A stretch of DNA of 64,000 bases from a virus, in the IMG/VR virus record IMGVR_UViG_3300017714_002439. The stretch is one strand, 5' to 3'. The position numbers were made by a program, and so were the translations under genes. The notes under the pieces were generated by a model. It was not told the origin of the DNA. It did not search any database and worked only from the letters and a program-made list of their open reading frames with translations. Positions 25,228-61,278 of the stretch are shown here, piece after piece (the first letter of the stretch is position 1; each line of letters opens with the position of its first letter).

Positions 25228-25662
25228 ATGAACGAATTTTGGCAGTGTTCGCCAAAGCAACGTCTTAGTTTGTGGAGGCAATTCCGAAAAACTTTAGCGA
25301 GTATGGAATATCTAGAAAGACTACAAGAAGTCGTAGACTTTTGGAGAATGGCACCTATGTCTAGTATGCATACAGACATATATGATTCCTCTACTTGGTT
25401 AGGTCCTTGGGATTTTATATGGAATGGCGAATACGATGAAAATAGTGTAGCGTTAGGAATAGCGTATACATTACAGTTAGAAAGTTATTCACAATGTGAA
25501 ATTTGGTTAGTGCAAAACACTAAAAAAAGTTATATTAACTTAATAGTTTCTGTTGACAACAAGCATATTCTAAACTATAATTATGGTATAGTAAATAGTA
25601 TAAATGATCTAAATGAAGACACAACTATTTTACAAAAAACACAGGTTAGCACGTTAACATAA
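25228..25662 (+). CDS. Hypothetical protein
   Basis: Intact ORF. Confidence 0.65.
   Translation: MNEFWQCSPKQRLSLWRQFRKTLASMEYLERLQEVVDFWRMAPMSSMHTDIYDSSTWLGPWDFIWNGEYDENSVALGIAYTLQLESYSQCEIWLVQNTKKSYINLIVSVDNKHILNYNYGIVNSINDLNEDTTILQKTQVSTLT
25553..25581 (+). promoter_or_regulatory. Consensus sigma70 promoter inside CDS, upstream of nrdA
   Basis: TTGACA-N17-TATAAT. Confidence 0.65.
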
Positions 25663-34288: not shown

Positions 34289-34317
34289 TTGACATATGCA
34301 TAAAAACGTTATATACT
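34289..34317 (+). promoter_or_regulatory. sigma70 promoter of yhhQ-proX-proW
   Basis: TTGACA-N17-TATACT. Confidence 0.75.
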
Positions 34318-34369: not shown

Positions 34370-34984
34370 ATGTTTACAAAACTTTTAGAAGGTGTAGACA
34401 AGACTCTAATTAGGAATCTTGTAATTCTACACACATTAGTAATTGCGGTAAGCAACTACTTAGTAACAATCAGATTTGATGTATTTCCAGGAGCAGAATT
34501 GCCCTTGTTTGGATCATTTCCACTAGCGGCTGCGGCGTTTACGTTTCCGATCGTTGTGGTAGCAACTGACCTAACAGTTAGGCTAGTTGGTAAAGAAGCA
34601 GGAAGAGCCGTTGTTGCAATGGCAATTATTCCGGCTATCGTTGCATCGGTACTTGTGCTATTAGCACTAGGCGATGAACATGCTTATAGAGTAGGTTTAG
34701 CAAGCGGAACAGCCTATGCAGTTGGAACAATGCTTGACGTATATGTATTCCAATATATCAGAGAAAAGTATACAGACATGTGGTGGGCGGCTCCGGCTTT
34801 GTCTACTGTTGTAGCAAACATTATTGATACGTATGCTTTCTTTTATACGGCATTTTATCCGGCGCCATGGGTAGGACCAGTAGCATTTAACAATACACTT
34901 ACTAAAATTGTAATTGGTTTGGTTGTATTTTTACCTGCTTATGGCTTACTACTAAGCTATCTTAAAAATAAAGTAAAACAATAA
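34370..34984 (+). CDS. yhhQ: YhhQ/VUT-family queuosine-precursor transporter
   Basis: SNYLV, AFTFP...ATDLTVRLVG...GR, R..LAS..AY..G..LDV.VF, ST...N.IDT..FF. Confidence 0.85.
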   Translation: MFTKLLEGVDKTLIRNLVILHTLVIAVSNYLVTIRFDVFPGAELPLFGSFPLAAAAFTFPIVVVATDLTVRLVGKEAGRAVVAMAIIPAIVASVLVLLALGDEHAYRVGLASGTAYAVGTMLDVYVFQYIREKYTDMWWAAPALSTVVANIIDTYAFFYTAFYPAPWVGPVAFNNTLTKIVIGLVVFLPAYGLLLSYLKNKVKQ

Positions 34985-34994
34985 CGGAGAAAAA

Positions 34995-35975
34995 ATGAAA
35001 AGACTACTCGCCATTATGGCAATAGCTTTAGCAATGACACCCATTGCTAAAGCAGATGAAATTAAAATTGCTGAATTAAATTGGCAATCAGGATCAATGA
35101 TAGCCAATATTGATGCTTATATTCTAAAACATGGATATGAACATGATACAGAACTTGTTCCTGGTGGTATAGATGCCACTATTGCTTCTATGATGGCAAC
35201 AGGTTCACCAAACATATTTGGTGAGGCTTGGACTTCGTTACTAGGTGATGATGCTACACTTAATATTAAATCAAGTGATGAAGATTCACTTACGCAACTC
35301 AGAGATGAGGTTGTAGTAGGAGCAGGCGAAGGCTGGTATGTTCCAGATTATATTGTAGAACAATATGGATTAAATACCATCGCTGATGTATTAGCAAGAC
35401 CAGATTTATTCCCACATCCAGAAGATTCAAGCAAAGGCGGAATTGTAATTTGTCCAGAAGGTTGGAGTTGTAAAAAGCACAACGAAAACTTATTCCGTGC
35501 ATTTGATATGGAAGCAAAAGGCTGGAAGATTATTGATCCTGGCTCAGGCACAGGCCTAAATGCATATTGGGAAGGACAAGTTCTAAAACAAGCTGGCGTG
35601 TTTGGATATTATTGGGCACCTACAGTATTAGTAGGTCGCTTAGGAATGGTTAAACTAGATTCAGACCTTGAATTTGATTCAGCACATTGGAGTGATTGTA
35701 TTGCACAATTAGAATGTGCAGATCCAAAACCAATGAACTGGCCAAGTGCAGAAACAGGAACTATTGTAACGCCAGGTATTGACATCGAAGTAGCTAATTA
35801 TCTAACAGCTCGTGGATTAGATGGAAGTGTAATTACTTCTATGCTAGTTTGGGCAGATGATAATCAAGCCACAGCAGAAGACATGGCAATTGAGTTCTTA
35901 AAACGCTATCCGGAGATTTGGAATAATTGGGTAACCACTGAAGCGGCCAACAAAATTACTAAAGCATTACAATGA
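34995..35975 (+). CDS. proX: Glycine betaine/proline-type ABC substrate-binding protein (ProX-like)
   Basis: Signal peptide, LNWQS, GEAW, EGWYVP, CPEGWSC, GYYWAPT. Confidence 0.85.
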   Translation: MKRLLAIMAIALAMTPIAKADEIKIAELNWQSGSMIANIDAYILKHGYEHDTELVPGGIDATIASMMATGSPNIFGEAWTSLLGDDATLNIKSSDEDSLTQLRDEVVVGAGEGWYVPDYIVEQYGLNTIADVLARPDLFPHPEDSSKGGIVICPEGWSCKKHNENLFRAFDMEAKGWKIIDPGSGTGLNAYWEGQVLKQAGVFGYYWAPTVLVGRLGMVKLDSDLEFDSAHWSDCIAQLECADPKPMNWPSAETGTIVTPGIDIEVANYLTARGLDGSVITSMLVWADDNQATAEDMAIEFLKRYPEIWNNWVTTEAANKITKALQ

Positions 35976-35976
35976 C

Positions 35977-36846
35977 ATGAATTTTCCATCGTTAGATAAA
36001 GGAACTATAACTAGTTTTAAAAAATCAATCGATGCAACGTTTAGAGAATTTGCGGCAAATTGGGGAGAGTGGTTTACAGACTTGCTCTCCCCATTACAAT
36101 GGCTACTAATACATTTTGAAAAACTACTATTGTCTACACCTTGGTGGGTGTTTTTAATTATAGTAAGTCTGTTAATATGGAAAGCAACAACAAATTGGAA
36201 ACTTATTATAGGTTTCCTTACTAGTTTTATAGCAATTGGATTAGTTGGCATGTGGAACGACACAATGCAAACACTAGCAATTGTTATTGTATCTACTCTT
36301 GTTTGTATTATAATTGGTATACCTACTGGTATATTAATGGCAAAAAACAAAACAGTAGAAAGAATTATAACACCAATCTTAGACTTAATGCAAACTATTC
36401 CAAGTTTTGTATATCTAATTCCAGTAGTAATGTTATTTGGATTAGGCAAGGTTCCAGGATTAATAGCAATAGTTGTATTTGCTATTCCACCTGTGATTAG
36501 ATTTACAAACATTGGATTAAAACAAGTAGATAAACATTTAGTAGAAACAGCACATGCATTAGGATTAAAACCAAAGCATGTATTAGCTCTTATTGAATTA
36601 CCACTAGCACGTAATGTTATATTAGGTGGAGTAAATCAAACAGTTATGATGGCACTAGCAATGGTAGTAATTGCAAGTATGATTGGAGTGCGTGGATTAG
36701 GATCACAAGTAATGAACTCAATAGGCAATGGATACTTAGGCCTAGGAGTTATAAGTGGATTAAGTATTGTTGCACTAGCAATTATTATAGATAGAGTTAT
36801 ACAATCACACAATAAAAAATATGACAAATGGCGTGATTATAAATAA
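35977..36846 (+). CDS. proW: Glycine betaine/proline-type ABC permease (ProW-like)
   Basis: PILDLMQTIPSFVYLIP, PPVIRFT..G..QV, EAA-loop, NQTVMMALAMVVIASMIG. Confidence 0.9.
   Translation: MNFPSLDKGTITSFKKSIDATFREFAANWGEWFTDLLSPLQWLLIHFEKLLLSTPWWVFLIIVSLLIWKATTNWKLIIGFLTSFIAIGLVGMWNDTMQTLAIVIVSTLVCIIIGIPTGILMAKNKTVERIITPILDLMQTIPSFVYLIPVVMLFGLGKVPGLIAIVVFAIPPVIRFTNIGLKQVDKHLVETAHALGLKPKHVLALIELPLARNVILGGVNQTVMMALAMVVIASMIGVRGLGSQVMNSIGNGYLGLGVISGLSIVALAIIIDRVIQSHNKKYDKWRDYK
36840..36845 (+). promoter_or_regulatory. Late promoter for TauD operon
   Basis: TATAAATA overlapping the proW stop, followed by AAGGAG SD. Confidence 0.6.
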
Positions 36847-36867
36847 CTATATAAAGGAGAATTGAGC

Positions 36868-37713
36868 ATGGAAAAACAGATAAAAGATTTTACAGATGAA
36901 GAAATGCTTAACGAAGCAACACGTATATTAACAGAAGGATTTACGTTGTATTACGATCAACAATTTACTATGGGTGAGTTAGTTGAATATTGTGGCAGAA
37001 TAGGAAGCACAGATGATGACATGCTAGGTTATATGCAGTTTAACCCAGAAGAACATCCTGATATTTCTATTGTATCTCCAAAGCCAGATATGTTACTTGG
37101 TCATTGTGATTTAGAATGGCATTCAAATGGAACAGTGCATCATGTGGTTGATGGTGTTTGGGAACACAAAGAATGGTTAATTTGTTTGTATTGTGTAGAC
37201 TATTGTCCTGATACAGTATTGTCAGTGAGTAACAACAGAGACGCATTTTTGGAACTACCCGAAGAAGAAAAACAATGGTGGCGCGGTGTTGAAGTGCAAT
37301 TAAACAACAACGGTGGAAGTATAATGGGTCAATATTGGAACCCACCAAACAAATCAGATGCGGCAAAAACAGCACGAATGGAAAAGTATGTTCAAGCACC
37401 AAAACATGAAGGTGACAGTAGAATGCCAGTAGTTAATACTCATCCTATTGGTGGACAAGAATTTTTATATTGGCAACCGCCTTTGATTAGTAAAGCATGG
37501 CACAATGGAGAACGAATAGATATTAAGCCATTGCAGAAAAAGTTTGATGCAGTTATTAATAGAACAAAATATATTAAAGACATTGTGTTTAGACCCGGAG
37601 ACATATTAATTATGGATCAATTTTACACACTACATAGACGTTCTCCAATATTAGATAAAAATAGAGAACTATGGAGAGTAGCAATAGACTACAAACATAC
37701 TATTGATAAGTAG
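36868..37713 (+). CDS. TauD/TfdA-family dioxygenase with HxN variant motif
   Basis: LEWHSNG, LYCV..C..T, HPIGG, FRPGDILIMDQFYTLHRR..R.LWR. Confidence 0.8.
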   Translation: MEKQIKDFTDEEMLNEATRILTEGFTLYYDQQFTMGELVEYCGRIGSTDDDMLGYMQFNPEEHPDISIVSPKPDMLLGHCDLEWHSNGTVHHVVDGVWEHKEWLICLYCVDYCPDTVLSVSNNRDAFLELPEEEKQWWRGVEVQLNNNGGSIMGQYWNPPNKSDAAKTARMEKYVQAPKHEGDSRMPVVNTHPIGGQEFLYWQPPLISKAWHNGERIDIKPLQKKFDAVINRTKYIKDIVFRPGDILIMDQFYTLHRRSPILDKNRELWRVAIDYKHTIDK

Positions 37714-37725
37714 AAAGGTATTTAC

Positions 37726-38604
37726 ATGAGTATTAAAAAATTACAAGACTACACTGATACAGAATTAAAAGAAGCAATGTATCAATGTGCTTCTGATGGA
37801 TATATATTACTTCATGATCAAGAATTTACTAGACAAGAATTAGTTGAAGTAAGTAGACGCATTGGTGATACAAATGATTCAAACCCATCAATGGGGCATA
37901 TGCAGTTTAATCCAGAAGATACACCAGATCTTTCTTTAATTACATCACAGCCAACTGGAACTGATCCACATGGCATGTTTGGTCCATCAGATTTATTATA
38001 TCATCATGATTTTGGAGTATGTCATTTTGGTGAATTCAAAGAACTACTAACAGGACTATATTGTGTAGGTTCGTGTCCAGATACAGTATTAAGTTTAATG
38101 AACACACAAGTTGCATTTAACTATTTGTCTGAGGAAGAAAAAGAATGGTGGCGTGGTGTTGAGACACAATTGAATCAAGGTTCACATGGAATATATGGAA
38201 CACCTGAAGAACACAATAGAGACCCTAGTTTAAAAGGTTACAAAGTTTTTAAACATACAGATGAAAGACAAAAAGTAATTAACATTCACCCGTATACTGA
38301 TAAAGAAATTATGCTATGGCAACCTGCATTTCTTGACAAGGCATGGCACAATGACGTGCCGCTTGACATAGAAGAATTAAAAGAGAAGTTCTTAAAGGAC
38401 CTATACAAAGGTAAGAACATAACTGACTTTGTTCTTAGAGAAGGCGACTTTTTAATATGTGACCAATTACTTACATTACATAGACGCAGTTGGGTTAAAA
38501 GTCTTGATAGAATGATATGGCGAACAGCATTTGATTATACTAATATACTTGGCCCTAATAAATCATATGATCCAGAAATAGAAAAACTAAAAGTAGTAAA
38601 ATAA
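37726..38604 (+). CDS. TauD/TfdA-family dioxygenase
   Basis: LLYHHD (HxD), LYCV, HPYT, LREGDFLICDQLLTLHRR..R.IWR. Confidence 0.85.
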   Translation: MSIKKLQDYTDTELKEAMYQCASDGYILLHDQEFTRQELVEVSRRIGDTNDSNPSMGHMQFNPEDTPDLSLITSQPTGTDPHGMFGPSDLLYHHDFGVCHFGEFKELLTGLYCVGSCPDTVLSLMNTQVAFNYLSEEEKEWWRGVETQLNQGSHGIYGTPEEHNRDPSLKGYKVFKHTDERQKVINIHPYTDKEIMLWQPAFLDKAWHNDVPLDIEELKEKFLKDLYKGKNITDFVLREGDFLICDQLLTLHRRSWVKSLDRMIWRTAFDYTNILGPNKSYDPEIEKLKVVK

Positions 38605-40031
38605 TGTTAAAACAAAAACAACCACCATTAAGTGATGATCAAATATTTTTGAGTTCATCAACAGAGCAAATTACATGGGGAGAGCTACACGCTAACCTTG
38701 ACGCTAAGATTGAGCGTTTAAAAGAATGTGGGATTGGTCCACATGTTGTATTTGTAGTTGCAGAAAATCAAGTTACAATAGATGATTATTTGTGGATACT
38801 TGCTAGTATAAAAAATGGTGGAAGTGCAACACAGGCAGATGGTAGACAAAGTAAGATGGAATTAGATGGGTTAATAGCAGGATCTAAAGCAGTATGTATT
38901 ATACGAAGCAACGAGATCACCATGCTAACAGACGATTTGACACCCACAATACTACATCCACTAGAGATTTACAGAGGTATGACAAGTGGAACTACAGTTA
39001 AAGAGTTTTTTGAAATGTATCCTTTCTTTTGGGATTATGAAGATCACGAACTAGCAATTGTAGACGGAGAAACACTATTAGGTTGCACAGCACATGCATC
39101 AACTCAACATTTATTTGCTATTGCTCCAGAGTTTGAAAAAGACGAACGCCCAAAGATACTTTGCACACATGGATTTACAGCAACATACAATCCATACAAC
39201 TTGTTAAGAATGTATTATGTTGGAGGAGGGTTACACTTCCTAAACTACGGAGATGATGTCCCAGAACAAATACGCAAAGCAAATCCTAATTGTTGTATTT
39301 CATATCCTATTGCAGTTAAAAATATCGTAGATGCATGTCCAGATGATTTTAATTGGAGTGGCATTAAATATTGGGAATGTTCAGGCGGACATACACCCGA
39401 ATCAGTTGTGCGTAGTATTGAAAAGAAGTTTAACTTTGTATGTATGCATAATATGATGGCGTCAACAGAAGCAGACTGTCATTCACGTGCAGAATACAGA
39501 CCAGGTGATCCAATAGAAAACTTTTATGGATTCAAACATAGAATATACAATGGCGATCTTAAACTAGACGAAGAAGGTGTTTTGTGGTATAAGTATGGAA
39601 CACGTGATTGGCAAACAGACGGTGATAAGTTTGATGACAAAGATGGAGTATGGTTTTACAAAGGTAGAGCATTTGATGATGTTATCTTTATGAAAGGTGG
39701 CGTTAAGATTTACACAGGAATGATTGAAGCAAAAGCATTAGAAACTTTAGGTGTAGAAAATGTTGCTAGTTGCAGTAAAGATGAATTACATTACTTAATA
39801 TATACGGGCAGTGCTAATGCATATGATGTAGCAACTAGTTTTAAAGCAATGCAACCATCAAAAAGACCACATGAAATATATCATGTTACTGATAAATTAT
39901 TCTTTGGACAAACAGACGATACTAGAACTCCGCAAAAGCTACAAAAAAGTAAATTAGCAGGAATTGTTTTAAACGGACCACAAGATCAAATACTAAGTCA
40001 TATGCATGTAAAGGATCATTCACTAGTATGA
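38604..40031 (+). CDS. Adenylate-forming (ANL, acyl-CoA synthetase-like) enzyme
   Basis: MTSGTT, MASTE, TDGD, KGRAFDDVIFMKGG.KIY, C-terminal KL.K. Confidence 0.75.
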   Translation: MLKQKQPPLSDDQIFLSSSTEQITWGELHANLDAKIERLKECGIGPHVVFVVAENQVTIDDYLWILASIKNGGSATQADGRQSKMELDGLIAGSKAVCIIRSNEITMLTDDLTPTILHPLEIYRGMTSGTTVKEFFEMYPFFWDYEDHELAIVDGETLLGCTAHASTQHLFAIAPEFEKDERPKILCTHGFTATYNPYNLLRMYYVGGGLHFLNYGDDVPEQIRKANPNCCISYPIAVKNIVDACPDDFNWSGIKYWECSGGHTPESVVRSIEKKFNFVCMHNMMASTEADCHSRAEYRPGDPIENFYGFKHRIYNGDLKLDEEGVLWYKYGTRDWQTDGDKFDDKDGVWFYKGRAFDDVIFMKGGVKIYTGMIEAKALETLGVENVASCSKDELHYLIYTGSANAYDVATSFKAMQPSKRPHEIYHVTDKLFFGQTDDTRTPQKLQKSKLAGIVLNGPQDQILSHMHVKDHSLV

Positions 40032-40717
40032 ATGTTACCAATTCATTAACAACACGCAAATCTACACGTGCTTACACTAATAAAAAAGTAGAAGTATCAT
40101 TAGTTAACGCTATTTTAAAACAAGCGATGCTATCACCTAGTGGAGATAATCATCAACCTTGGCAAGTAGCAGTATTAACAGGTAAAGCAAAAGCTAACCT
40201 ATGTAGTAAATTAGAACAAGCATTTCGATCTGGTGTAAAACCTATTATGGATTATGAATATTATCCACAAAATAAAAAGTCTGAAAAAGAAACAAAATGG
40301 TTTGGCGAGTATAAAGATAATAGAAAAGAATGTGGACTAGCATTATATTCTCAACTAGGCATCACTAGAAAAATGAAAAAAGAAAAAGACGACTTATATG
40401 CTAAAAACTATAGAGCCTTTGATGCACCGGTTATGTTATTATTCTTTATTGATAGAGAACTAGGCTACGGATCCTATGTTGACTATGGAATGTTCTTGCA
40501 AAGTATTATGTTACTAGCAACAGAACATGGATTAGCAACTTGCCCACAAGGCTCACTTAGTGAATATGGAAATATTGTAAGACAGGAATTGCCAGAACAC
40601 AAAGATAAAATAGTATTATGTGGAATGAGCATGGGATATGAAGATAAAGATAGCCTTATAAATAAATATAGAACAACAAGGCAACCAATATCAAAGAAAG
40701 TAAAATATTATGACTAA
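40028..40717 (+). CDS. Nitroreductase-family protein
   Basis: TRKSTRAY, SPSGDNHQPWQV, FDAPV, GLATCPQG, GMSMGYED. Confidence 0.9.
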   Translation: MNVTNSLTTRKSTRAYTNKKVEVSLVNAILKQAMLSPSGDNHQPWQVAVLTGKAKANLCSKLEQAFRSGVKPIMDYEYYPQNKKSEKETKWFGEYKDNRKECGLALYSQLGITRKMKKEKDDLYAKNYRAFDAPVMLLFFIDRELGYGSYVDYGMFLQSIMLLATEHGLATCPQGSLSEYGNIVRQELPEHKDKIVLCGMSMGYEDKDSLINKYRTTRQPISKKVKYYD

Positions 40718-41303
40718 GAAATGGTTAGACGAAGTATATGGTAAAACTAACAGTGAGTTATATGATAACTGGAACAATTATCATGAACAAGTTATAGATG
40801 GACTAGGCTGGAAGTGTCATATATTAGCAGCACAATGGATTGCTGATAACTTTGCAGAAGGAACAGAAGTTGCAGACATTGGATGTGGTAATGGACAAGT
40901 TGGAATAGGACTGCAAGCACATGATTACAAAATAGATGGATACGATATAAATCAACCTATGCTTGATAGATTTATAGCAAAGAATTACAGGTCAATACAA
41001 ATACATGATATAACTAAAGCACCACTACCTAAAAAATATAAATGTATAACAGCAATAGGTGTATTAACAATAGGACATGTTGATGCTAGTGCTTCAAAGA
41101 ATCTAGCTGATAGTTTAACTGATGATGGACTATTGTATTGTAGTATGGGCAAACATAATGTGGATTGGTATTTTGAAGGCGGGTGGAGTTCTCAAAAAGA
41201 TTTAGAAGTTATTAAAATTGAACCTATACATAGTTTAACTACACCAGAAGGTAATAAGCAATATCATAATATGATTACCTTTAAGAAGTCAAAAAAGACT
41301 TAA
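40710..41303 (+). CDS. Class I SAM-dependent methyltransferase
   Basis: VADIGCGNG, DGYDIN..ML, HDIT. Confidence 0.85.
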   Translation: MTKKWLDEVYGKTNSELYDNWNNYHEQVIDGLGWKCHILAAQWIADNFAEGTEVADIGCGNGQVGIGLQAHDYKIDGYDINQPMLDRFIAKNYRSIQIHDITKAPLPKKYKCITAIGVLTIGHVDASASKNLADSLTDDGLLYCSMGKHNVDWYFEGGWSSQKDLEVIKIEPIHSLTTPEGNKQYHNMITFKKSKKT

Positions 41304-42003
41304 TCTCTTTCCAATTTTTATCTTTAACATTTAGCACTAATTTATTATTAGTGTTTATTCTATCTTGCATGTTATGATAAAGCGTGTTCTTAACACTAAT
41401 TAAATATTCGGTCCAATATTCATCTTTCATTAATGTTCCGTGTGTTTTTTGAGCCCATATATCTGCTACAGTAAAGTCTTTCTTTATCTCACTCATACAT
41501 TTTAAAAATACTAAATGCGGATTATTTTCTGGCACAATGTCTGCCATTCTTAGCCACCCTGGAAATTTTGCAGTAGTTTTCATATAACGTTCTGCAAGTG
41601 GATCTATATCATGGATTAAATTAATTACTTTACAGTTAGGAAACCAATGTAATAGCTCTTTAGGCTTACTATGTGTGCAATACACGAACGATTTATCAGT
41701 ATCTGGTGCTAATTGCTTAAACTTTTCAGCAAACATACTATAATAATACTCTGGAAATGGAAAAAAGTCTTTAACATAATCCCATGTAGGTGGAAGTTTC
41801 CCATTTGGCACAATTCTATCAAAATGTGCTGGTGCAACCTTGCGTTGTCTTATTGTAGTATGTTTTGTATTAATGTTCCATGGATTAATTCCATTATCTA
41901 TATGGCTATACCAATATATATTTGGAAGAGTTGCAATTGTTCTTGCAAGTCTATGACCACCGCCACCTTGTTCAAAACTAACAAATATAATATTATTCAT
42001 CAA
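41281..42003 (-). CDS. Hypothetical protein, possible sulfotransferase-like P-loop fold
   Basis: IFVSFEQGGGGHRLAR and CTH...FPNCKVINL patterns. Confidence 0.4.
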   Translation of the reverse strand: MMNNIIFVSFEQGGGGHRLARTIATLPNIYWYSHIDNGINPWNINTKHTTIRQRKVAPAHFDRIVPNGKLPPTWDYVKDFFPFPEYYYSMFAEKFKQLAPDTDKSFVYCTHSKPKELLHWFPNCKVINLIHDIDPLAERYMKTTAKFPGWLRMADIVPENNPHLVFLKCMSEIKKDFTVADIWAQKTHGTLMKDEYWTEYLISVKNTLYHNMQDRINTNNKLVLNVKDKNWKEIKSFLTS

Positions 42004-42271
42004 TAGTCTCTACATGTATTCCACGTATCCATTCATACCATTCTTTGGATCGTCTTTTTGCTTCCATATGTTCTGGGTTATGAGCCCAATCTGTAACATC
42101 TTCTTTACTACGCCAAGTGCTAACAGTAATTTCAATATCACCTATCTCTTCGTTTGTAATAGAAACAAACCCTGAATGACTTTCAGCAAGTTCACGCATT
42201 CTTTTACTCATTGTTACATACTCACTTGGCATAGGTGATTTCATTTTTGCTATAAAAAATACTTTAATCAT
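41993..42271 (-). CDS. Antibiotic biosynthesis monooxygenase (ABM)-domain protein
   Basis: Y..MSKRM.ELA....GF.S, ITVSTW.S.E....W...PEH.EA. Confidence 0.8.
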   Translation of the reverse strand: MIKVFFIAKMKSPMPSEYVTMSKRMRELAESHSGFVSITNEEIGDIEITVSTWRSKEDVTDWAHNPEHMEAKRRSKEWYEWIRGIHVETIDE

Positions 42272-42425
42272 TTTCTTTTTTTAACTCTTCAATAACTTTT
42301 TTCTTAATTGGCATTGTAACAATAGATCCTGTTGTAACTTTATAACCACCTATTTGAAATAATGTAGGACCAATACACCCTGTTAACATAATGCACAGGC
42401 AAAAAATAGCTAAGGTGTTTATCAC
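42264..42425 (-). CDS. 53-aa putative lipoprotein (GTG start, not in ORF track)
   Basis: Hydrophobic N-terminus with LTGC lipobox; start and stop overlap neighbours. Confidence 0.55.
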   Translation of the reverse strand: MINTLAIFCLCIMLTGCIGPTLFQIGGYKVTTGSIVTMPIKKKVIEELKKEND

Positions 42426-43123
42426 TTTCTTCCTTTGTAATACAAGGTTCCTTGAGAATTTACTACAACATCATCTTGTGTATTAAACCAGCCACTGTAA
42501 ACACATATGTCACCATTCACAAAAAACTTACCATCTACAATATTCCATTTACAATAAAAATTATCTCCTAAAATAGTTGCATCTGGTATTGCATGTTCTT
42601 GGTAATATGCAACATCATTCATATTACGAAATACAGTATTAATAGCAGTAGGACCTACTTCACTCATACCCCAATTTGCCATAAATGTAGCTCCTTGTTT
42701 TACAAATGCTTCAATAATATCCCAATCAACTGGATCACTTCCTACTGTAACCCAAATACCAGTTAAGTCTAGATCGTAAAAGTTTTTAGTTTTCATTAAT
42801 GCACGACAATGTGCAGGAACTAAATGTGTATGTGTATAGTTATTAATTTTACTATTAAACGTATAAGCATTAAATGGCTCTACATCAATATGAGCACCTA
42901 CTGTAAAACCGGGTAATGTTTGTGCTAATAATCCACCTGCATGTTCCATTTTACAAACAGTGTATATTCTACTATCACTGTTTATGTTTTGACATTCAAC
43001 AGCAACTTTATTTGCCGCTGTTATTTTATTAATACTTTGACGTATTTCTTTAGGCTCACCAGTAGTTCCACTACTACGTATCACACCGCCTTTAAAAATC
43101 CAATCAGTTAGTTTAAGATCCAT
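42422..43123 (-). CDS. Truncated/minimal adenylate-forming enzyme
   Basis: SSGTTGEPK, H.GGL, NWGMSE, GWFNTQD, YYKGR at the very C-terminus. Confidence 0.75.
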   Translation of the reverse strand: MDLKLTDWIFKGGVIRSSGTTGEPKEIRQSINKITAANKVAVECQNINSDSRIYTVCKMEHAGGLLAQTLPGFTVGAHIDVEPFNAYTFNSKINNYTHTHLVPAHCRALMKTKNFYDLDLTGIWVTVGSDPVDWDIIEAFVKQGATFMANWGMSEVGPTAINTVFRNMNDVAYYQEHAIPDATILGDNFYCKWNIVDGKFFVNGDICVYSGWFNTQDDVVVNSQGTLYYKGRK

Positions 43124-43649
43124 TTCTTACTCTTTCATAATTCTCTATATCTAATAGCCATACATTTTGATTTACATTAAATATCTCTTCTTTGCCTAAA
43201 CAACATACAATATCATATTTTTCTAGTGTTAAAAAAGTTTTATTAACTTTTTGCATTCTACCACTTTGATCAGTATCTGTGTTTGTTGTTATATATAAAA
43301 ATGGATGTTCAGACATTGAGTGACCTTTAGCCCATTCAATTTGGTATGGTAACTGACTATAAAAGCAATAACTTTGCATATGATATCTGTTTAATCCGCA
43401 TGGTCTACTTTCAAGTTGAGCACCACGGAATAATAGACGCCACCCATCTTTAAATGGATGTATTCCACTAAGACTAATAATTTCATCTTTACTGTCATGT
43501 GTTGCAAACCACATGCCACCTTCTTCTAAACACCATTCAAACTTCATGGCTTTAAGAGAGTTATTATTTTTATATCCTAACTCATCACATTTTGTTAAAA
43601 AATTCATTAACTGTGGAGTCGGACTGGTTAACTTGGTCGTGTATATCAT
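43113..43649 (-). CDS. Hypothetical protein, possible GNAT fold
   Basis: Start at 43649 fits promoter spacing; GNAT-like strand pattern only weakly. Confidence 0.45.
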   Translation of the reverse strand: MIYTTKLTSPTPQLMNFLTKCDELGYKNNNSLKAMKFEWCLEEGGMWFATHDSKDEIISLSGIHPFKDGWRLLFRGAQLESRPCGLNRYHMQSYCFYSQLPYQIEWAKGHSMSEHPFLYITTNTDTDQSGRMQKVNKTFLTLEKYDIVCCLGKEEIFNVNQNVWLLDIENYERVRNGS

Positions 43650-43655
43650 GTTTAT

Positions 43656-43698
43656 ATTATATAATAAGGTTGACAATTTGTCAAGATCTACTTATAAT
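43656..43698. promoter_or_regulatory. Interlocked divergent consensus sigma70 promoters
   Basis: TTGACA-N17-TATAAT on both strands around the TTGACAATTTGTCAA palindrome. Confidence 0.85.
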
Positions 43699-43735
43699 AA
43701 ATAAAGTAGTAATCATATTTATACACGGAGAAACA

Positions 43736-44521
43736 ATGGCAATTTTAGAACTTGAAGTTTTAAAGGTTCAGCACTATACTGACGACCTCTTTCATTTTAC
43801 AGTAGCACGTGATCCTGGATTAAGATTCAGAGATGGCGAATTTGTAATGATTGGATTAAATAACTGGTCAGAAAAACTACAAAAGAATAAACCAATAATG
43901 AGGGCATATAGTGTAGCAAGCCCTAACCATCAAGAAACAATAGAATTTTATAGTATTAAAGTTCAAGAAGGACCTTTAACTAGTAAACTACAACACGTAG
44001 TTCCAGGAGATAAAATATTAGTAAATGACAAAGCAGTAGGCACATTAGTTAATACAAATATTAAACCAGGACGTAATTTATACTTACTAGCAACAGGAAC
44101 AGGTGTAGCACCATTTTTATCAATAGCACGTGGAGTAGACACATACGAATACTATGAAAATGTAATATTAGTATGGGGAGCAAGAACAGTTGCAGAACTT
44201 CCATTTGATGCAATGTTTAGGAATTTAAACGAAGATGAAATATACCAACATGTTACAGAAGGCAAATTTAAATTTTATCCAACAGTAACAAGACAACTTT
44301 ATGAAAACGAAGGCCGTGTAACTGATGCAATGTATGAAGGTAAAGTGCAAGAAAAACTAGACTTACCAGAACTAGATTCAGAACAAGATAGAGTTATGAT
44401 ATGTGGAAGTATTCCAATGAACAATGAACTAGTAAAATGGCTAGAAGGCAAAGGGTTTGAAGAAGGCAATAATAAAACACCTGGAACTTATGTAGTGGAG
44501 AGAGCATTTGTAGAACAATGA
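43736..44521 (+). CDS. fpr: Ferredoxin-NADP+ reductase
   Basis: RAYSVAS, GPLTSKL, LATGTGVAPF, VMICGS, terminal ERAF; GGAG SD. Confidence 0.92.
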   Translation: MAILELEVLKVQHYTDDLFHFTVARDPGLRFRDGEFVMIGLNNWSEKLQKNKPIMRAYSVASPNHQETIEFYSIKVQEGPLTSKLQHVVPGDKILVNDKAVGTLVNTNIKPGRNLYLLATGTGVAPFLSIARGVDTYEYYENVILVWGARTVAELPFDAMFRNLNEDEIYQHVTEGKFKFYPTVTRQLYENEGRVTDAMYEGKVQEKLDLPELDSEQDRVMICGSIPMNNELVKWLEGKGFEEGNNKTPGTYVVERAFVEQ

Positions 44522-45285
44522 GTTACCAAGAGCTAATTAAAACACACAGAGATACTATTATAAAAAACTTTGAACCTGCACGGTGCGAAGAAAATGTGTT
44601 TAGCGAAAAAGAACTACATGATTTAACTTTGTATCAGTTTCAAAATGCAGATGACTTTCGGTGGACAAATACTAGCAGTAATATACAACCTATATTAAAT
44701 GTTACACGACTATTTGAAGACTTTACATGGTTACAAGATAAATTTGAATCAATACTAAAACACGACTTTAGTCAATATCATACAGGTAACTATTATATTA
44801 CTACCCAACTACATGATGCACATGTAGACTTAATGACAGAAACAGAAACAAAATTTGACTGGGCAGAGAATTTAATTCCCTATAAAAGTTGTGTAATACC
44901 GTTAGGCATTACAGCAGGCGCTGAAGCCCATACAGCATTTTTTAAACAAAGACATATTGGCACAAGTGTAACATTTGATCGTGTTGGGCAAAGTTCACAA
45001 GATAAAAGTATGTATGAGATTTCACGTGAATATCCAAAGTTAGAAAGACTAGATACTCCAACATTAGAAAACACAGATTATATATTTCCACACATAAACG
45101 AGGATAATATATGTGACTTTGATTTAGAAGCAGTGTTTCCATTTCAACCAGGTAATGCATTAGTATTTGATGCATGCCAGTTACATGCAAGTTGTGTAAC
45201 ACGTAAACGGCCAAACTTTAATTCATTGAAAACAGGAATTAATATACAATTTTATATAAATACAACTGGAAAAATAAACTCATAA
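44518..45285 (+). CDS. 2OG-Fe(II) oxygenase-like protein
   Basis: HVD (HxD), GNALVFD..QLH. Confidence 0.5.
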   Translation: MSYQELIKTHRDTIIKNFEPARCEENVFSEKELHDLTLYQFQNADDFRWTNTSSNIQPILNVTRLFEDFTWLQDKFESILKHDFSQYHTGNYYITTQLHDAHVDLMTETETKFDWAENLIPYKSCVIPLGITAGAEAHTAFFKQRHIGTSVTFDRVGQSSQDKSMYEISREYPKLERLDTPTLENTDYIFPHINEDNICDFDLEAVFPFQPGNALVFDACQLHASCVTRKRPNFNSLKTGINIQFYINTTGKINS

Positions 45286-45331: not shown

Positions 45332-46162
45332 ATGACGCAACTCATAAACCCACAAAAATTTACAGATACAGTTGGCCTTTTAAGGTCATTTTTTTTGGCT
45401 AAAGGATTTTTAGAAGTCCACACCCAAAATAGATTAAGCATATTAGCGGCTTGCGAAGATCCGTTTAATGTAGCAACATACAATTACGCAGGCCAAGTAT
45501 GGCCGTTGCCCCAAACAGGCCAAATGTGGTTAGAACACGAATTATTAAGTAGCCCCGATAGTAAGGGGTTTTTTTGTGTCTCCACGTCCTACAGACAAGA
45601 ACCAAACGCAATACCAGGCAGACATGATATAATATTTCCAATGTTTGAATTTGAAATGCCAGGTAGTGTAGATGATCTAAAAGCAATGGAGTATGAACTA
45701 TGTGAATACTTAGGCTTTGGTAACATTACAGAAAAGACTTATGCTGAATGGCAACAACACTTTGGACTAAGTGCTGATACAGAAATGGAAGCAGAACACG
45801 AACTTGCAATGGAAAAAGAGTTTGGACAAACACTTATTACAAACTTCCCTGAACTAACATCACCTTTCTGGAACATGGCAAGAAACGATGACGGCAACAC
45901 AGCAAAGAAGATGGATGTTATACTAGGTGGTATGGAAACTATTGGATCAGCAGAACGCAGTTGTAATGTTGATACGATGAGAGATACATTTCATAGTATT
46001 ACAGACGGTGCTTACTCAAAACTACTATTTGAATTATTTGGCAAAGATAGAGTAGAGGCAGAACTTGAAAAGTTTTTAGAGTTTGATTTCTTTCAAAGAG
46101 TTGGCGGAGGCATAGGTGTAACACGTATGATTCCTGCACTAGAAAAAATTAACAAAATCTAG
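45332..46162 (+). CDS. Class II aaRS catalytic-domain paralog (AsnA/AS-AR-like amino acid-ammonia ligase)
   Basis: Motif 2 SYRQE...RH, motif 3 GGGIGVTR, ETIGSAER; no anticodon-binding domain. Confidence 0.75.
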   Translation: MTQLINPQKFTDTVGLLRSFFLAKGFLEVHTQNRLSILAACEDPFNVATYNYAGQVWPLPQTGQMWLEHELLSSPDSKGFFCVSTSYRQEPNAIPGRHDIIFPMFEFEMPGSVDDLKAMEYELCEYLGFGNITEKTYAEWQQHFGLSADTEMEAEHELAMEKEFGQTLITNFPELTSPFWNMARNDDGNTAKKMDVILGGMETIGSAERSCNVDTMRDTFHSITDGAYSKLLFELFGKDRVEAELEKFLEFDFFQRVGGGIGVTRMIPALEKINKI

Positions 46163-47951: not shown

Positions 47952-47980
47952 TTGACAAAACCAAGACTTCTTGTTATAAT
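47952..47980 (+). promoter_or_regulatory. sigma70 promoter with spacer palindrome (shifted 2 nt)
   Basis: TTGACA-N17-TATAAT; CAAGA-CT-TCTTG. Confidence 0.85.
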
Positions 47981-48582: not shown

Positions 48583-49548
48583 ATGTTATATAAACGCATA
48601 CACACAATCCAATTTGATTTAAATGTTATATGTAATGCATTCTGCCCAGGATGCCATAGATACGCAGTAGTAGATGATGAAATGTATCTCAATCCATATC
48701 TACCATTTAATACTAGTGTAGATTTAAGCATTGTAGAACGTGTAATGGAAAATACTAGGTTAATTGATAACGTAGTAATTGATATGGTTGGGTTAGTAGG
48801 TGAGCCAATTGCACACAATGAGTTTTTAGATATAGTTGATATCATATATGGGCATAAACCTAATGCACGTATACACATTCACACAAATGGTGGATTACGC
48901 TCAGTAGAATTTTTCAAAGAACTTGCACATAAGTTAAATCATCAATCGTGGATTATATTCTCAATTGATGGATTAGCGGATACAAATCACAAATATAGAA
49001 TTGGAGTTATATGGGAAAAGGTAATGGAAAATGCAAAAGCATACATAGATGCAGGAGGAAAAGCAATATGGAAGTCTTTAGATTTTCCGTGGAATAGTCA
49101 CCAAAAAGAAGATATGCAATCATTATCAATTGATATGGGATTTAAAGGTTTTAGGTGGGAGAAAAATAGAGATGCTAATACTAAATGGATGGAAAAGTGG
49201 GTAAAAGCTGCAGAAAAGTTTAATCAAAAAACAAAAGCAAAACTAGGATACAAACAAGTATTATATCAACAACACTTTAATAGTATAAAAAATAGATGCT
49301 TTGATGATGAAGCAATTTACATAAATTATCAAGGTAAAGTTTTGCCATGTTGTATGTTTAATGCATCATTAACAGATGAGTCATATATGGACGAAATGAA
49401 ACCCTATATTAATGAAAATAATGAGAATTGGAACAGTTTAGAGCACAATACACTAGAAAATGTGATGAATAATAAATGGTGGCACAAGCTGTATGGCCAT
49501 TTAGATACTAAACCATGCAGTGTTTGTATCCATGCCTGTGATACATAA
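48583..49548 (+). CDS. Radical SAM protein with C-terminal SPASM/Twitch
   Basis: CNAFCPGC, GEPIAH, HTNGG, C..IYIN..G...PCC..CSVC; TAAATA(48572-48577)-N5-ATG. Confidence 0.88.
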   Translation: MLYKRIHTIQFDLNVICNAFCPGCHRYAVVDDEMYLNPYLPFNTSVDLSIVERVMENTRLIDNVVIDMVGLVGEPIAHNEFLDIVDIIYGHKPNARIHIHTNGGLRSVEFFKELAHKLNHQSWIIFSIDGLADTNHKYRIGVIWEKVMENAKAYIDAGGKAIWKSLDFPWNSHQKEDMQSLSIDMGFKGFRWEKNRDANTKWMEKWVKAAEKFNQKTKAKLGYKQVLYQQHFNSIKNRCFDDEAIYINYQGKVLPCCMFNASLTDESYMDEMKPYINENNENWNSLEHNTLENVMNNKWWHKLYGHLDTKPCSVCIHACDT

Positions 49549-50196: not shown

Positions 50197-50457
50197 TTGG
50201 CTAAATTTACACAACGATATCTTAAACCAACGTTGTTTAAACCAAAAGGTTCTGTGTTTGAAGGCTTGATATGGAAACAGCCTAATTCAAAAGGCACAGA
50301 CACATATGATGTTACTTGCACAGACAAAGGGTTTACTTGTGAGTGTCCAGGCTTTACATTCCGTGGCAAGTGTAAGCATAGTTTAGAAGTGCTAACAAGA
50401 GTAGAAATCGCACTAGACGACAAGCATCCACAATATAGAATGGAGTTAGCACAATGA
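50197..50457 (+). CDS. SWIM zinc-finger protein (TTG start)
   Basis: FTCECPGFTFRGKCKH; AAGGAG SD 7 nt before TTG. Confidence 0.8.
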   Translation: MAKFTQRYLKPTLFKPKGSVFEGLIWKQPNSKGTDTYDVTCTDKGFTCECPGFTFRGKCKHSLEVLTRVEIALDDKHPQYRMELAQ

Positions 50458-51182
50458 AGACTGCATATCTATTTGATGTAGATGGAACATTAACACCAAG
50501 CCGGCAAAGAATGGACGAAAAGTTTAACAGATTTTTCTATGACTTTTGTCTTAATAATAATGTGTATATTGTTACAGGAAGTGATCAAAGCAAAACAGTA
50601 GAACAAATAGGTAATATTATCTATAGCGGTTCTAAACGAGTATACAATTGCAGTGGCAATGATGTATATGAAAACTTTGAAAATATATACACTAACAAAT
50701 GGACATTACCAGACGAGCCTTGGAAGTATTTAGAAAATAGATTAAATCACAGCGATTTTGGACAACGAGCAGGACTACATTTTGAAGAACGTCCTGGTAT
50801 GTTAAATTTTAGTATTGTTGGCAGAAAGGCTAATGCTCAGCAACGCAAAGACTATATTTTATATGATACATATCACAAAGAACGTGAAGATATTTCAAAC
50901 GAGTTTAATAAGCACTTTGGAGATAAACACAATATCATGTCAACTGTAGCTGGAGAAACTGGCTTAGATATAACACAAAAAAATTGTGGCAAAGCACAAA
51001 TACTTAAAGATTTTACAGAATACGAAGAAATAATTTTCTTTGGTGATAAAACTATGAAAGGCGGCAATGATCATGACATTGCAGAAGCATTAATAGGTAT
51101 GGGACATACTGTATTTGCCGTAAAAGAATGGCAAGATACGTATCGTATTTTAACACAAATGTATGAACCCCATTCGATCTGA
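50454..51182 (+). CDS. HAD-IIB hydrolase, phosphomannomutase-like
   Basis: LFDVDGTLTP, VTGSD, NFSIVGR, FFGDK...GGND. Confidence 0.8.
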   Translation: MKTAYLFDVDGTLTPSRQRMDEKFNRFFYDFCLNNNVYIVTGSDQSKTVEQIGNIIYSGSKRVYNCSGNDVYENFENIYTNKWTLPDEPWKYLENRLNHSDFGQRAGLHFEERPGMLNFSIVGRKANAQQRKDYILYDTYHKEREDISNEFNKHFGDKHNIMSTVAGETGLDITQKNCGKAQILKDFTEYEEIIFFGDKTMKGGNDHDIAEALIGMGHTVFAVKEWQDTYRILTQMYEPHSI

Positions 51183-51745: not shown

Positions 51746-52255
51746 ATGATGATAACAAGTGCAAAGATGTTTGCAACGGCGGCTCATGCCGCAGTAGGGC
51801 AAAAACGTAAATACTCAGGTGATGATTACATTGTTCATCCAGAGCGAGTTGCGGCTATTGTAGAAAAGCACGGCGGAACAGATGAAATGATTGCCGCGGC
51901 TTGGTTACATGACACTGTAGAAGATACAGATGTTACACCTATTCTTATTACTAAAATGTTTGGTGTTGATGTTGCAGATATCGTTGAAGGTCTTACTGAT
52001 ATTAGTTTACCTAGTGATGGTAATAGAGCAAAGCGTAAGTCAATTGATCGTATGCACAGTGCAAGGGCTTCAACTGAATCACAGTTTGTAAAATGTGCAG
52101 ACATTATTGATAACAGTTGGGATATCGCTGATAACGATCCTAGTTTTGCAAAAGTATACAAATCAGAAGTATTTCTTTTGTTACACGCAATGACAAAAGT
52201 AAAGCATACAGAAATTTGGGAACAAGCAATGAAAAGCGTAGAGTTAATGCCTTAA
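51746..52255 (+). CDS. RelA/SpoT-type HD hydrolase (small alarmone hydrolase/Mesh1-like)
   Basis: AH..GQKRK.SG..YIVHP..VA, AAWLHDTVED, VKCAD..DN. Confidence 0.8.
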   Translation: MMITSAKMFATAAHAAVGQKRKYSGDDYIVHPERVAAIVEKHGGTDEMIAAAWLHDTVEDTDVTPILITKMFGVDVADIVEGLTDISLPSDGNRAKRKSIDRMHSARASTESQFVKCADIIDNSWDIADNDPSFAKVYKSEVFLLLHAMTKVKHTEIWEQAMKSVELMP

Positions 52256-54560: not shown

Positions 54561-55151
54561 ATGGCATTGGTACCAATGGTGGTCGAACAGACCGGACGAG
54601 GAGAACGCAGTTACGATATTTACAGTAGACTATTAAAAGATCGTATTGTGATGTTAACTGGAGAAGTAAACGACATGACAGCAAATTTAGTTGTTGCACA
54701 AATGTTGTTTTTAGAATCACAAAATAGCAGTGAAGATATTAACTTTTACATTAATAGCCCAGGTGGCGGAGTTACAGCCGGACTTGGAATTTATGATACA
54801 ATGCAGTTTATTAAATCTCCTGTAAGCACAATTGTAATGGGTCAAGCATGTAGCATGGGCAGTTTCCTTGCTATGGCAGGTGAGCCTGGTAAACGTTTTG
54901 TATTGCCAAATAGTAGAACAATGATTCACCAACCAAGTGGTGGTGCAGGTGGACAAGCAACTGACATGGAAATACAAGTTCAAGAAATTCTTAAAATTAA
55001 AAAGAATCTTACAGACATTTATGTTAAACATAACAGTGCTGGAAAAACATTTGATGAACTAGCACAAGCAATGGAACGTGATAACTTTATGAGCGCCAAT
55101 GAAGCAGTAGAATTTGGTTTAGCTGATAAAGTAGTTATTAGAAAAACATAA
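54561..55151 (+). CDS. clpP: ATP-dependent Clp protease proteolytic subunit
   Basis: [24 protein letters not shown] (Ser), MIHQP (His), MERD (Asp). Confidence 0.97.
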
Positions 55152-55174
55152 AATATATCATATTAGCAATTAAG

Positions 55175-55182
55175 TATAAATA
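55175..55182 (+). promoter_or_regulatory. T4-type late promoter, leaderless spacing
   Basis: TATAAATA-N5-ATG(55188). Confidence 0.65.
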
Positions 55183-55187
55183 CTAAT

Positions 55188-61249: not shown

Positions 61250-61278
61250 TTGACAATTTAGAATTTTGATGTTATAAT
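61250..61278 (+). promoter_or_regulatory. Consensus sigma70 promoter
   Basis: TTGACA-N17-TATAAT. Confidence 0.8.

Follow-up and report, generated by a model that had tools for sequence, protein, structure and literature searches.

An operon of a marine jumbo phage with a DmpX-like binding protein and permease ahead of two TauD-family oxygenases: a possible import-coupled small-molecule pathway

In Escherichia coli, tauABCD encodes an ATP-binding cassette (ABC) importer together with TauD, a dioxygenase that acts on the imported sulfonate. In the surface ocean, few fluxes of reduced sulfur and labile carbon are as large as those of dimethylsulfoniopropionate (DMSP) and related onium compounds. 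Roseobacter and SAR11 bacteria take up DMSP with a specific ABC importer, DmpXWV, whose binding protein, likewise specific for DMSP, is represented in the PDB by RnDmpX, entry 7yle (PMC10030565). Here we describe a viral operon that brings elements of both systems together. It lies in a 64,000-nt stretch of DNA (IMG/VR record IMGVR_UViG_3300017714_002439), which as a whole is called the window and to which all coordinates refer; labels such as L004 denote related contigs or loci. A gene for a DmpX-like binding protein and a permease gene are followed by genes for two TauD-family oxygenases, an adenylate-forming enzyme, a nitroreductase and a methyltransferase. The original prediction, which took the last five genes for a late biosynthetic cluster of a phage, named the enzyme families and the phage origin correctly and overlooked the binding protein and the permease directly upstream on the same strand. 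We tentatively favor the possibility that the operon encodes a small-molecule pathway acting on an imported onium carboxylate.

All five enzyme genes are on the plus strand, and the open reading frame (ORF) listing and Pfam matches agree with the tight packing first described for them. TauD1 (36868-37713; PF02668, 52.8 bits at a cut-off of 27) and TauD2 (37726-38604; PF02668, 56.6 bits) are separated by 12 nt, and the downstream junctions overlap by 1, 4 and 8 nt. These junctions join TauD2 to ANL1, a stand-alone divergent adenylate-forming enzyme of 475 aa (38604-40031; PF00501, 32.6 bits at a cut-off of 29.9), then to an NfnB-type NAD(P)H:FMN nitroreductase (NTR; 40028-40717; PF00881, 81.7 bits, E 9e-23) and finally to a class I S-adenosylmethionine (SAM)-dependent methyltransferase (MT; 40710-41303) with the motif I DIGCGNG, which matched several class I methyltransferase families of Pfam. 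The start codon of TauD1 is the ATG at 36868, with AGGAG ahead of it; an in-frame TTG at 36862 is not the true start.

The block does not stand by itself. On the same strand it is preceded by a YhhQ/Vut_1-family membrane transporter of the queuosine-precursor type (34370-34984; PF02592, E 1.7e-20), a secreted OpuAC-family substrate-binding protein (SBP; 34995-35975; PF04069, E 4e-37) and an ABC transporter permease (Perm, BPD_transp_1; 35977-36846; PF00528, E 1.8e-27). The stop codon of the permease gene is 21 nt from the start of TauD1, and between 34995 and 41303 every gap is at most 21 nt or the genes overlap. The overlaps of start and stop codons suggest translational coupling. Purifying selection was detected in all genes tested (dN/dS 0.06-0.26). 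YhhQ is not co-conserved with the cluster: only the nearest relative has it, at 52% identity.

The N-terminus of the binding protein resembles a Sec signal peptide that ends in AKA ahead of DE. In a search of the PDB, the sole match at E<=1e-3 was RnDmpX (E 1.6e-39), and in a profile search RnDmpX scored 236 bits (E 6.4e-69), as compared to 43 bits for TmoX (4e-10) and 28 bits for ProX. The ligand pocket of DmpX is formed by Trp35, Thr64, Trp84, Glu113, Trp152, Ala153, Tyr200 and Trp202 (PMC10030565). Six of these eight residues are the same in the phage protein (W30, W79, E112, W157, Y205 and W207), which preserves the four-Trp cage together with Glu113 and Tyr200, the residue that contacts the sulfonium. 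Ala153 is replaced by Ser158. The carboxylate-binding Thr64 is replaced by Ile59 in SBPs of the window type and stays Thr in phage SBPs of the L017 type and in cellular homologues (42-45% identity). The ligand is therefore likely to be an onium compound related to DMSP, and because of the Thr-to-Ile change in the pocket it is perhaps other than DMSP itself. None of the window ORFs of at least 200 aa matched an ABC ATPase (PF00005/ABC_tran), nor did four of five related contigs give a match above the cut-off; binding protein, permease and ATPase are not found together in the window. We searched the literature for DMSP or betaine importers encoded by phages and found nothing specific.

The predicted promoters suggest that the importer genes and the enzyme genes are transcribed together. 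We scored as sigma70-type any site that matched TTGACA-17-TATAAT at >=11/12 positions. The window contains 15 such sites, compared to 4.6 in shuffled sequences, and almost all of them are intergenic and 7-50 nt before a start codon. One of them, TTGACA-17-TATACT (11/12; 34289-34317, plus strand), lies 53 nt ahead of yhhQ and is the likely start of an eight-gene operon. In L004, L006, L007 and L011 a counterpart of this promoter stands ahead of the gene for the binding protein. The motif TATAAATA ahead of TauD1 (36838-36845, plus strand), previously taken for a T4-type late promoter, overlaps the stop codon of the permease gene, where it corresponds to the codons Asp-Tyr-Lys-stop, and is probably not a promoter. 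It occurs 9 times in the window against 13.2 expected, so it is not enriched, and although it is present upstream of TauD1 in L006 and L007, it is absent in L012 and in the nearest relative, whose TauD1 is 97% identical. An enriched and conserved late motif was thus not found at TauD1, and the late timing assigned to the cluster is not supported. Because of the sigma70-type promoter at 34289, and because TATAAATA is neither enriched nor conserved, the five genes most likely form the distal part of a transcript of eight genes that is synthesized by an RNA polymerase of the sigma70 type. Terminator prediction inside the operon gave nine weak sites, with 6.6 expected, none beyond chance, and no riboswitch or other known RNA was detected within 33-47.5 kb. 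Across the window, almost all sigma70-type sites are on the plus strand (for example 2289-2317, 25553-25581, 47952-47980 and 61250-61278), and three are intragenic (11672, 14034 and 25553), each 5' of the next gene.

Both TauD proteins matched PF02668 over profile positions 20-266 of 267 and are 41% identical to each other, which bears out their description as paralogues. TauD2 has the canonical 2-His-1-carboxylate triad (HxD...H; H93-x-D95...H252), together with R262 and R266. TauD1 lacks the triad: the Asn of its WHSNG sequence (HxN) aligns with the metal-binding Asp in the WHSD sequence of TauD, while the distal His and both Arg residues are kept. R262 and R266 lie 10-14 residues past the distal His, where TauD/TfdA enzymes have the Arg that binds the C5 carboxylate of 2-oxoglutarate. 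Neither varies among 15 phage sequences, and exceptions are rare among 119 subfamily representatives. A profile built from the 15 phage sequences retrieved just 639 of 1.84 billion representative proteins at E<=1e-3. Among the 119 near-full-length members of this subfamily the triad position reads HxN in 64-65, HxD in 37-39, HxA in 7 and HxG in 1, with hardly any variation at the distal His and the Arg. The eight HxA/HxG members (P0176, P0194, P0198, P0225, P0244, P0259, P0264 and P0301) have the pattern of Fe/2-oxoglutarate (2OG) halogenases, and P0176 (L055, HxA) adjoins a gene for a B12-binding radical SAM enzyme. Matches of the TauD profile in the PDB were all remote, TauD being the best (E 3e-6), followed by 7tcl, ScoE, CarC, RdpA/SdpA and AtsK. 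Searches of the PDB with the single sequences of TauD1 and TauD2 gave only spurious matches to designed repeat proteins, and no NCBIfam family was found for either.

Low dN/dS values (0.06-0.11) rule out that TauD1 is a degenerate pseudo-enzyme. The WHSNG sequence also occurs in the single-copy loci L015, L017 and L018, in Pelagibacter phage Mosig EXVC030M and in one cellular homologue, and some other tandem TauD pairs are HxN+HxN. HxN enzymes occurring alone and as both copies of a pair are neither decayed copies nor dependent on an HxD partner. Literature searches for natural HxN TauD enzymes turned up nothing specific; the nearest precedents are AspH, which has two His ligands only, and the 2-His-1-Asn site proposed for the HD-domain oxygenase SmaX.

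Members of the subfamily are found in a variety of settings. The Mosig TauD, which is 30% identical to that of the window, is encoded between an FMN reductase, a peroxiredoxin and a methylase, and nearby are genes for a nitroreductase, radical SAM enzymes, Asp/Asn hydroxylases, a desaturase, an aminotransferase, a GNAT acyltransferase and tail fibers. This region has been described as the host recognition cluster of pelagimyophages (PMC7029224). A cluster on a cellular contig (L054; 1.2 Mb, 33% GC) is homologous to it gene by gene, with identities of 60% for TauD, 47% for the FMN reductase, 47% for the methyltransferase and 59% for the desaturase, and is flanked by an Acyl_transf_3/SGNH O-acyltransferase and a MurJ-like flippase. 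Elsewhere we found the orders TauD-TauD-FMN_red, Ferritin-TauD-SPASM radical SAM and Asp_Arg_Hydrox-x-TauD-B12 radical SAM. Counting the nitroreductase of the window, a flavin reductase stands beside TauD in four independent settings. On L061 (GCA_030424715.1, a 505-kb contig), two TauDs of the WHSNG type are accompanied by a SPASM radical SAM gene, FA_hydroxylase, FA_desaturase and Asp_Arg_Hydrox. This contig also encodes a ribonucleotide reductase (RNR), a class I aminoacyl-tRNA synthetase (aaRS) and a lectin-like protein, and could be either viral (giant virus or megaphage) or cellular.

The PF00501 match of ANL1 spans residues 173-294 only. Nevertheless, ANL1 has both domains and the core motifs of ANL enzymes: T127-S-G-T-T-x-K133 (A3, the P-loop), D341 (A7), G354-R355...D358...K364 (A8, the hinge) and the C-terminal K445 (A10) are invariant across 17 homologues. 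When the PDB was searched with a profile of these 17 sequences, the GrsA A-domain was matched weakly and at the N-terminus only. With the single sequence, matches in the PDB were spurious (designed repeats) and those in NCBIfam far below threshold. The family comprises 41 clusters in 5.8 billion proteins, all of them metagenomic. NTR gave full-length matches in the PDB to 3gr3 (E 1e-45, residues 3-226), 7dp0 (E 2e-36) and NfnB 2wzv (E 3e-23), and the best match of MT was METTL27 (E 2e-6). As the original prediction had stated, no carrier protein or condensation domain is visible. Among ORFs of at least 60 aa from 28-50 kb, none had a PP-binding, condensation, thioesterase or lyase Pfam domain, and the intergenic gaps in 34.3-46.2 kb, all <=150 nt, leave no room for a carrier protein.

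To see which genes accompany ANL1, we used it as the anchor of a search that returned 23 viral contigs (56-99% identity) and counted partners within 10 kb. A TauD gene was present in 19 of the 23 contigs, NTR in 16 and MT in 21. SBP was found in at least 13. Three genes of the convergent operon that abuts the block were also counted: ANL2c, a second adenylating enzyme, in 13, a GNAT gene in 12 and u239, which resembles sulfotransferases and kinases in its fold, in 12. Loss of co-conservation in relatives had been proposed as the result that would speak against a cluster; the genes are in fact largely conserved together. Their order is not. Several loci have SBP-Perm-TauD1-TauD2-ANL1-NTR-MT, in L007 with an inserted radical SAM gene, and L017 has SBP-Perm-TauD-ANL1-NTR-MT. 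The other orders are TauD1-TauD2-ANL1-NTR-MT-SBP-Perm in L011, SBP-Perm-ANL1-x-TauD in L018 and GNAT-ANL2c-u239-x-ANL1-TauD-MT in L020, which adjoins three radical SAM genes, an Asp/Asn hydroxylase, a QueC-like protein and a TctA transporter. L004, which has the flanks of the window and an ANL that is 95% identical, reads ANL1-NTR-MT-SBP-Perm-u239-like-ANL2c-FNR (FNR, ferredoxin-NADP reductase) and is without TauD. This, the genes upstream and the mosaic structure of the block do not fit the view that the five genes are a self-contained unit.

Throughout these changes the importer genes remain next to the enzymes. Perm is followed by TauD in the window, L006, L007, L012 and L017 and by ANL1 in L018, and MT is followed by SBP in L004, L011 and L041, so that the adjacency is kept through about five different arrangements. 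A second search, anchored on SBP, gave 27 loci. In L049, L050 and L052, where SBP is only 36-38% identical, SBP-Perm is flanked by u239, GNAT, ANL2c, MT, a radical SAM gene, another ANL and an aldo/keto reductase. The block also seems to have recombined internally: relative to L011, the synonymous divergence is dS 1.9 for TauD1 and 0.75 for TauD2, and such uneven values for neighboring genes of the same genome pair point to exchange inside the block. Two types of MT (76-94% and 43-47% identical) fill the same slot.

Some further observations concern these loci. The SBP-permease cassette lies between the primase and DnaB-helicase genes, which adjoin in the window, in L041, L042 and L046, indicating that it is mobile within these phage genomes. 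The ANL1 loci that are most distant encode, about 1.5 kb downstream of the enzyme block, a tripartite tricarboxylate transporter of the TctA family (L020, 14397-15842), which takes the place of the DmpX-like ABC cassette. The window has two paralogous radical SAM-SPASM genes (48583-49548 and 52278-53282, plus strand), whose relatives in the Mosig island are 23% identical and a relative of which is inserted between ANL1 and NTR in L007-L010. Two small proteins that are not encoded in the window go with the GNAT/ANL2c/u239 genes in relatives: a hydrophobic one of 70-92 aa (L015 18356-18583, L049 12965-13177 and L004 15254-15532) and one of 140-149 aa (L020 9549-9998, L013 12687-13109 and L049 11871-12296).

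The small-molecule pathway that we tentatively prefer could work as follows. Early in infection, the phage SBP and permease would pair with an ABC ATPase of the host, and this importer would take up a small onium carboxylate, DMSP-like or betaine-like. The TauD-type enzymes might then oxidize the imported compound, either through oxidative demethylation or through hydroxylation at a position next to a leaving group, and their conserved second Arg is compatible with a substrate that carries an anionic group. The flavin oxidoreductase could feed electrons to the HxN iron site or carry out a separate reduction. The adenylating enzymes would activate the carboxylate, the GNAT would hand the acyl group to an acceptor, and MT, perhaps also the sulfotransferase-like u239, would complete the product. 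In the end, the imported compound might be degraded as a source of sulfur, carbon or nitrogen, or it might be turned into a new metabolite. We favor this reading because of the operon structure and the adjacency of the importer through rearrangements, and the substrate Arg, the two carboxylate-activating enzymes and the GNAT fit it. The closeness of SBP to DmpX, the co-conservation of the enzymes, the purifying selection, the invariant catalytic motifs of ANL1 and the recurrence of TauD with a flavin reductase in other genomes also speak for it. Its most specific form, in which a hybrid importer of phage SBP and permease with a host ATPase feeds a DMSP-like sulfonium compound or betaine into a pathway around a previously unrecognized WHSNG branch of TauD with its flavin reductase, is improbable.

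Several observations weigh against such a pathway. The importer cassette occurs alone or elsewhere (L037, L039, L042, L046, L047 and L048), one such site being between the primase and helicase genes, and in L004 and L011 it comes with a promoter of its own. Conversely, the enzymes of L015/16 and L019-25 have no importer within 10 kb. Since L004, a close relative, lacks both TauDs, no fixed pathway is conserved. Other TauDs of the subfamily are found in islands with Asp/Asn hydroxylase, radical SAM, desaturase or surface-polysaccharide genes or by tail fibers, and not with transporters. None of the window enzymes is a recognizable homologue of a known enzyme of DMSP or betaine pathways. The SBP ligand is deduced from sequence, and one carboxylate-binding residue differs. 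Finally, a shared transcript in accessory regions of phages is not proof of a shared pathway.

Taken on their own, the contexts of the other TauDs would rather point to enzymes that tailor the envelope or a macromolecule (host glycans, membrane lipids or virion proteins such as fibers), the importer being independent and merely sharing a hotspot and a transcript. A WHSNG TauD by the tail-fiber genes of Mosig, in the host recognition cluster (PMC7029224), the cellular L054 cluster between an O-acyltransferase and a MurJ-like flippase, the TauD genes that accompany SPASM or B12 radical SAM enzymes, FA_hydroxylase or Asp_Arg_Hydrox, and the mobility of the importer cassette on its own are all consistent with this. 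We consider it somewhat less probable than the import-coupled pathway: in this lineage the block is in the replication/nucleotide-metabolism region, away from structural genes, and the operon is without a glycosyltransferase, Asp/Asn hydroxylase or desaturase. Moreover, ANL, GNAT and an importer for a carboxylate ligand suit small-molecule chemistry, and it is the same importer whose adjacency survives about five arrangements. The mosaicism of the locus could also mean that there is no common pathway at all and that a recombination hotspot has gathered co-transcribed, unrelated accessory genes (morons), each acting on its own host metabolite. Extreme rearrangement, as in L004, where the flanks are the same and content and order differ, the two MT types in one slot and the uneven dS of neighboring genes against L011 all speak for such a hotspot. 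We regard it as improbable nonetheless, given that GNAT, ANL2c, u239 and MT regroup around SBP-Perm in distant phages (those with SBPs of 36-38% identity), that the overlapping start and stop codons suggest translational coupling and that TauD, a flavin reductase and a methyltransferase recur together in unrelated genomes.

A late, self-contained natural-product cluster of five genes behind a T4-type late promoter, analogous to ScoE/ScoC, PvcB or CAS, was the interpretation first put forward, and it seems to us very improbable. It would account for a TauD-family gene that adjoins an adenylating enzyme, ScoE and CarC are indeed among the remote PDB matches of the TauD profile, and TATAAATA at 22 nt ahead of the ATG has a plausible geometry. 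That motif, however, consists of permease codons, falls short of its expected number and is missing in the nearest relative, and the region is organized by strong sigma70-type promoters. Space for a carrier protein is lacking, as are PP-binding, condensation and thioesterase matches; the similarity to ScoE and CarC (E 2e-5 to 1e-4) is no better than that to TauD itself, and the block is not self-contained.

The convergent operon on the minus strand was previously reported to hold a second ANL and an ABM protein. Both are present, with some corrections to their description. ANL2c (42422-43123) is a minimal adenylating core of 233 aa that runs from the P-loop SSGTTGEPK to the hinge YYKGRK: it starts about 15 residues ahead of the P-loop, comprises motifs A3 to A8 only and is without the N-terminal subdomain and the C-terminal domain. 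Its homologues in six loci are in the same size range (226-248 aa), and a search for longer relatives came back empty, although this counts as weak evidence. The ABM-like protein (41993-42271; 92 aa) is a DUF3291 protein (PF11695, E 1e-8) confined to the window and its nearest relative. The ORF upstream of ANL2c, u178 (43113-43649), travels with ANL2c and encodes a GNAT-fold acyltransferase and not part of an ANL. Its AlphaFold2 (AF2) model (predicted local distance difference test score, pLDDT, 89.2) gave 41 Foldseek matches at E<=1e-3, all GNATs (TM 0.5-0.65), without any Pfam match by sequence. The GNAT fold, and the inverted order of u178 and ANL2c in L012/L013, rule out that the two are a frameshifted full-length ANL.

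The last gene of this operon, u239 (41281-42000, minus strand), overlaps the end of the MT gene by 23 nt. It is virus-restricted and has a P-loop kinase/sulfotransferase-like fold. Its match to the Pfam family Sulfotransfer_4 (E 0.0096, 16.2 bits) is below the cut-off of 22.8. The top Foldseek matches of its AF2 model (pLDDT 74.7) were the sulfotransferases Cpz8 and NDST1 (TM 0.40-0.45), and in a VIA comparison (Z 9-10) sulfotransferases were tied with nucleoside kinases and MiaA. The N-terminal loop GGGGHRLAR is neither a canonical phosphosulfate-binding (PSB) loop nor a Walker A motif. An assignment as sulfotransferase could thus not be told apart from kinase and MiaA folds. NCBIfam contains no family for u239 or u178.

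Two interlocked perfect sigma70-type promoters (12/12 each; 43656-43698, one on each strand) serve the minus-strand GNAT operon and a plus-strand operon that begins with an FNR-like flavoprotein (43736-44521; NAD_binding_1 E 2.8e-10, FAD_binding_6). The FNR start at 43736 agrees with the promoter and with the 261-aa orthologue in L004. The next gene, u255 (44518-45285, plus strand), has no family match and only an HxD...H-like pattern; a relationship to the 2OG-FeII_Oxy_3 protein of L054 was rejected, as there is no similarity. It is followed by a paralogue of the catalytic core of class II (Asp/Asn-type) aaRSs without an anticodon-binding domain (45332-46162, plus strand; tRNA-synt_2 E 2e-15), which matched asnS/aspS of NCBIfam at E 4e-8, AsnA only at 0.0018 and AspRS in the PDB at E 1e-4. 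The FNR gene noted earlier just beyond the convergent operon was thus confirmed, as was the class II synthetase-like gene, first read as an AsnA-like ligase.

The remaining genes place the window in a marine jumbo myophage, with a predicted genome of about 360 kb. The genome size is implied by a related IMG/VR contig of 184 kb that is rated 51% complete. The window encodes a primase, a DnaB-type helicase, RNR subunits, ClpP/ClpX, a homologue of initiation factor 3 (IF3), radical SAM enzymes and a GMP reductase/IMPDH-like gene, and its helicase is 51% identical to that of the Pseudomonas jumbo phage PA5oct and 45% to that of Atu_ph07. A comparison of 36001-44000 with 50,697 GenBank phages at the DNA level gave no match. 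At 54561-55883 (plus strand) there is a ClpP protease homologue (E 3e-79) and then a Zeta-toxin-like P-loop kinase (E 3e-14); ClpP and the ClpX homologue about 2.5 kb downstream (58358-59557) may form a Clp system of the phage's own. The IF3 homologue (59559-60077, plus strand; IF3_N E 3e-22, IF3_C E 3e-19) follows directly after ClpX. A second, more divergent gene of the nitroreductase family (21400-22164, plus strand, E 6e-6) is located in the replication region, and a eukaryotic-type phosphomannomutase (50454-51182; PF03332, E 3e-24) and an HD_4 domain protein (51746-52255) are also encoded on the plus strand.

If the import-coupled pathway is true, infection would redirect a major marine pool of organosulfur compounds and osmolytes into a new product or through a new cleavage or demethylation route. 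With a binding protein and permease of the phage's own placed before oxygenases, ligases and a methyltransferase, onium solutes would be handled differently in infected and in healthy cells. The TauD subfamily, which keeps the 2OG Arg and the distal His, mostly has Asn (at times Ala or Gly) for the iron-binding Asp, is under strong purifying selection and is often encoded beside flavin reductases, is a lead to unusual non-heme iron chemistry.

The operon can be compared with four described systems. With the isonitrile clusters (ScoA-E, Rv0096-0101) and the CAS/CarC clusters it shares an oxygenase of the TauD superfamily that adjoins an adenylate-forming enzyme. Unlike them, it has no carrier protein, ScoD-type lyase or condensation domain, and its similarity to ScoE and CarC is remote; those clusters for their part are without transporter coupling and phage context. 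The analogy drawn earlier to these clusters is therefore not supported: a carrier protein would not fit into the gaps, and the TauDs are remote from ScoE, CarC and TauD alike. Closer is the operon logic of tauABCD, in which binding protein and permease also go with a TauD-family oxygenase, and the Arg for the anionic group is kept. In contrast to tauABCD, the phage SBP is from another family, an ATPase gene is absent, the TauDs are remote (profile E 3e-6) with one HxN copy, and ANL, NTR, MT and GNAT genes are added.

DmpXWV is matched by an OpuAC-family SBP that is far nearer to DmpX than to TmoX, ProX or OpuAC, and by a BPD_transp_1 permease directly after it. The phage has no gene for the ATPase (DmpV), however, its SBP is only about one third identical to DmpX, and in the pocket for the predicted ligand it has Ile for Thr64 and Ser for Ala153. 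Furthermore, the phage importer is joined to an operon of enzymes, whereas cellular dmpXWV was reported to be unlinked to catabolic genes (PMC10030565). The Mosig island, in turn, differs in its position among tail-fiber genes, has Asp/Asn hydroxylases, a desaturase and an aminotransferase and neither importer nor ANL, and its methyltransferases are not detectably homologous to MT of the window. What it and L054 have in common with the window are a WHSNG TauD, a methyltransferase, a flavin reductase or nitroreductase, a GNAT and relatives of the radical SAM-SPASM enzymes. As this toolkit is common to jumbo phages, the tail-fiber island of a pelagimyophage and an island of surface-polysaccharide genes in a cell, working out one of its members would make it possible to annotate many marine genes whose functions are unknown.

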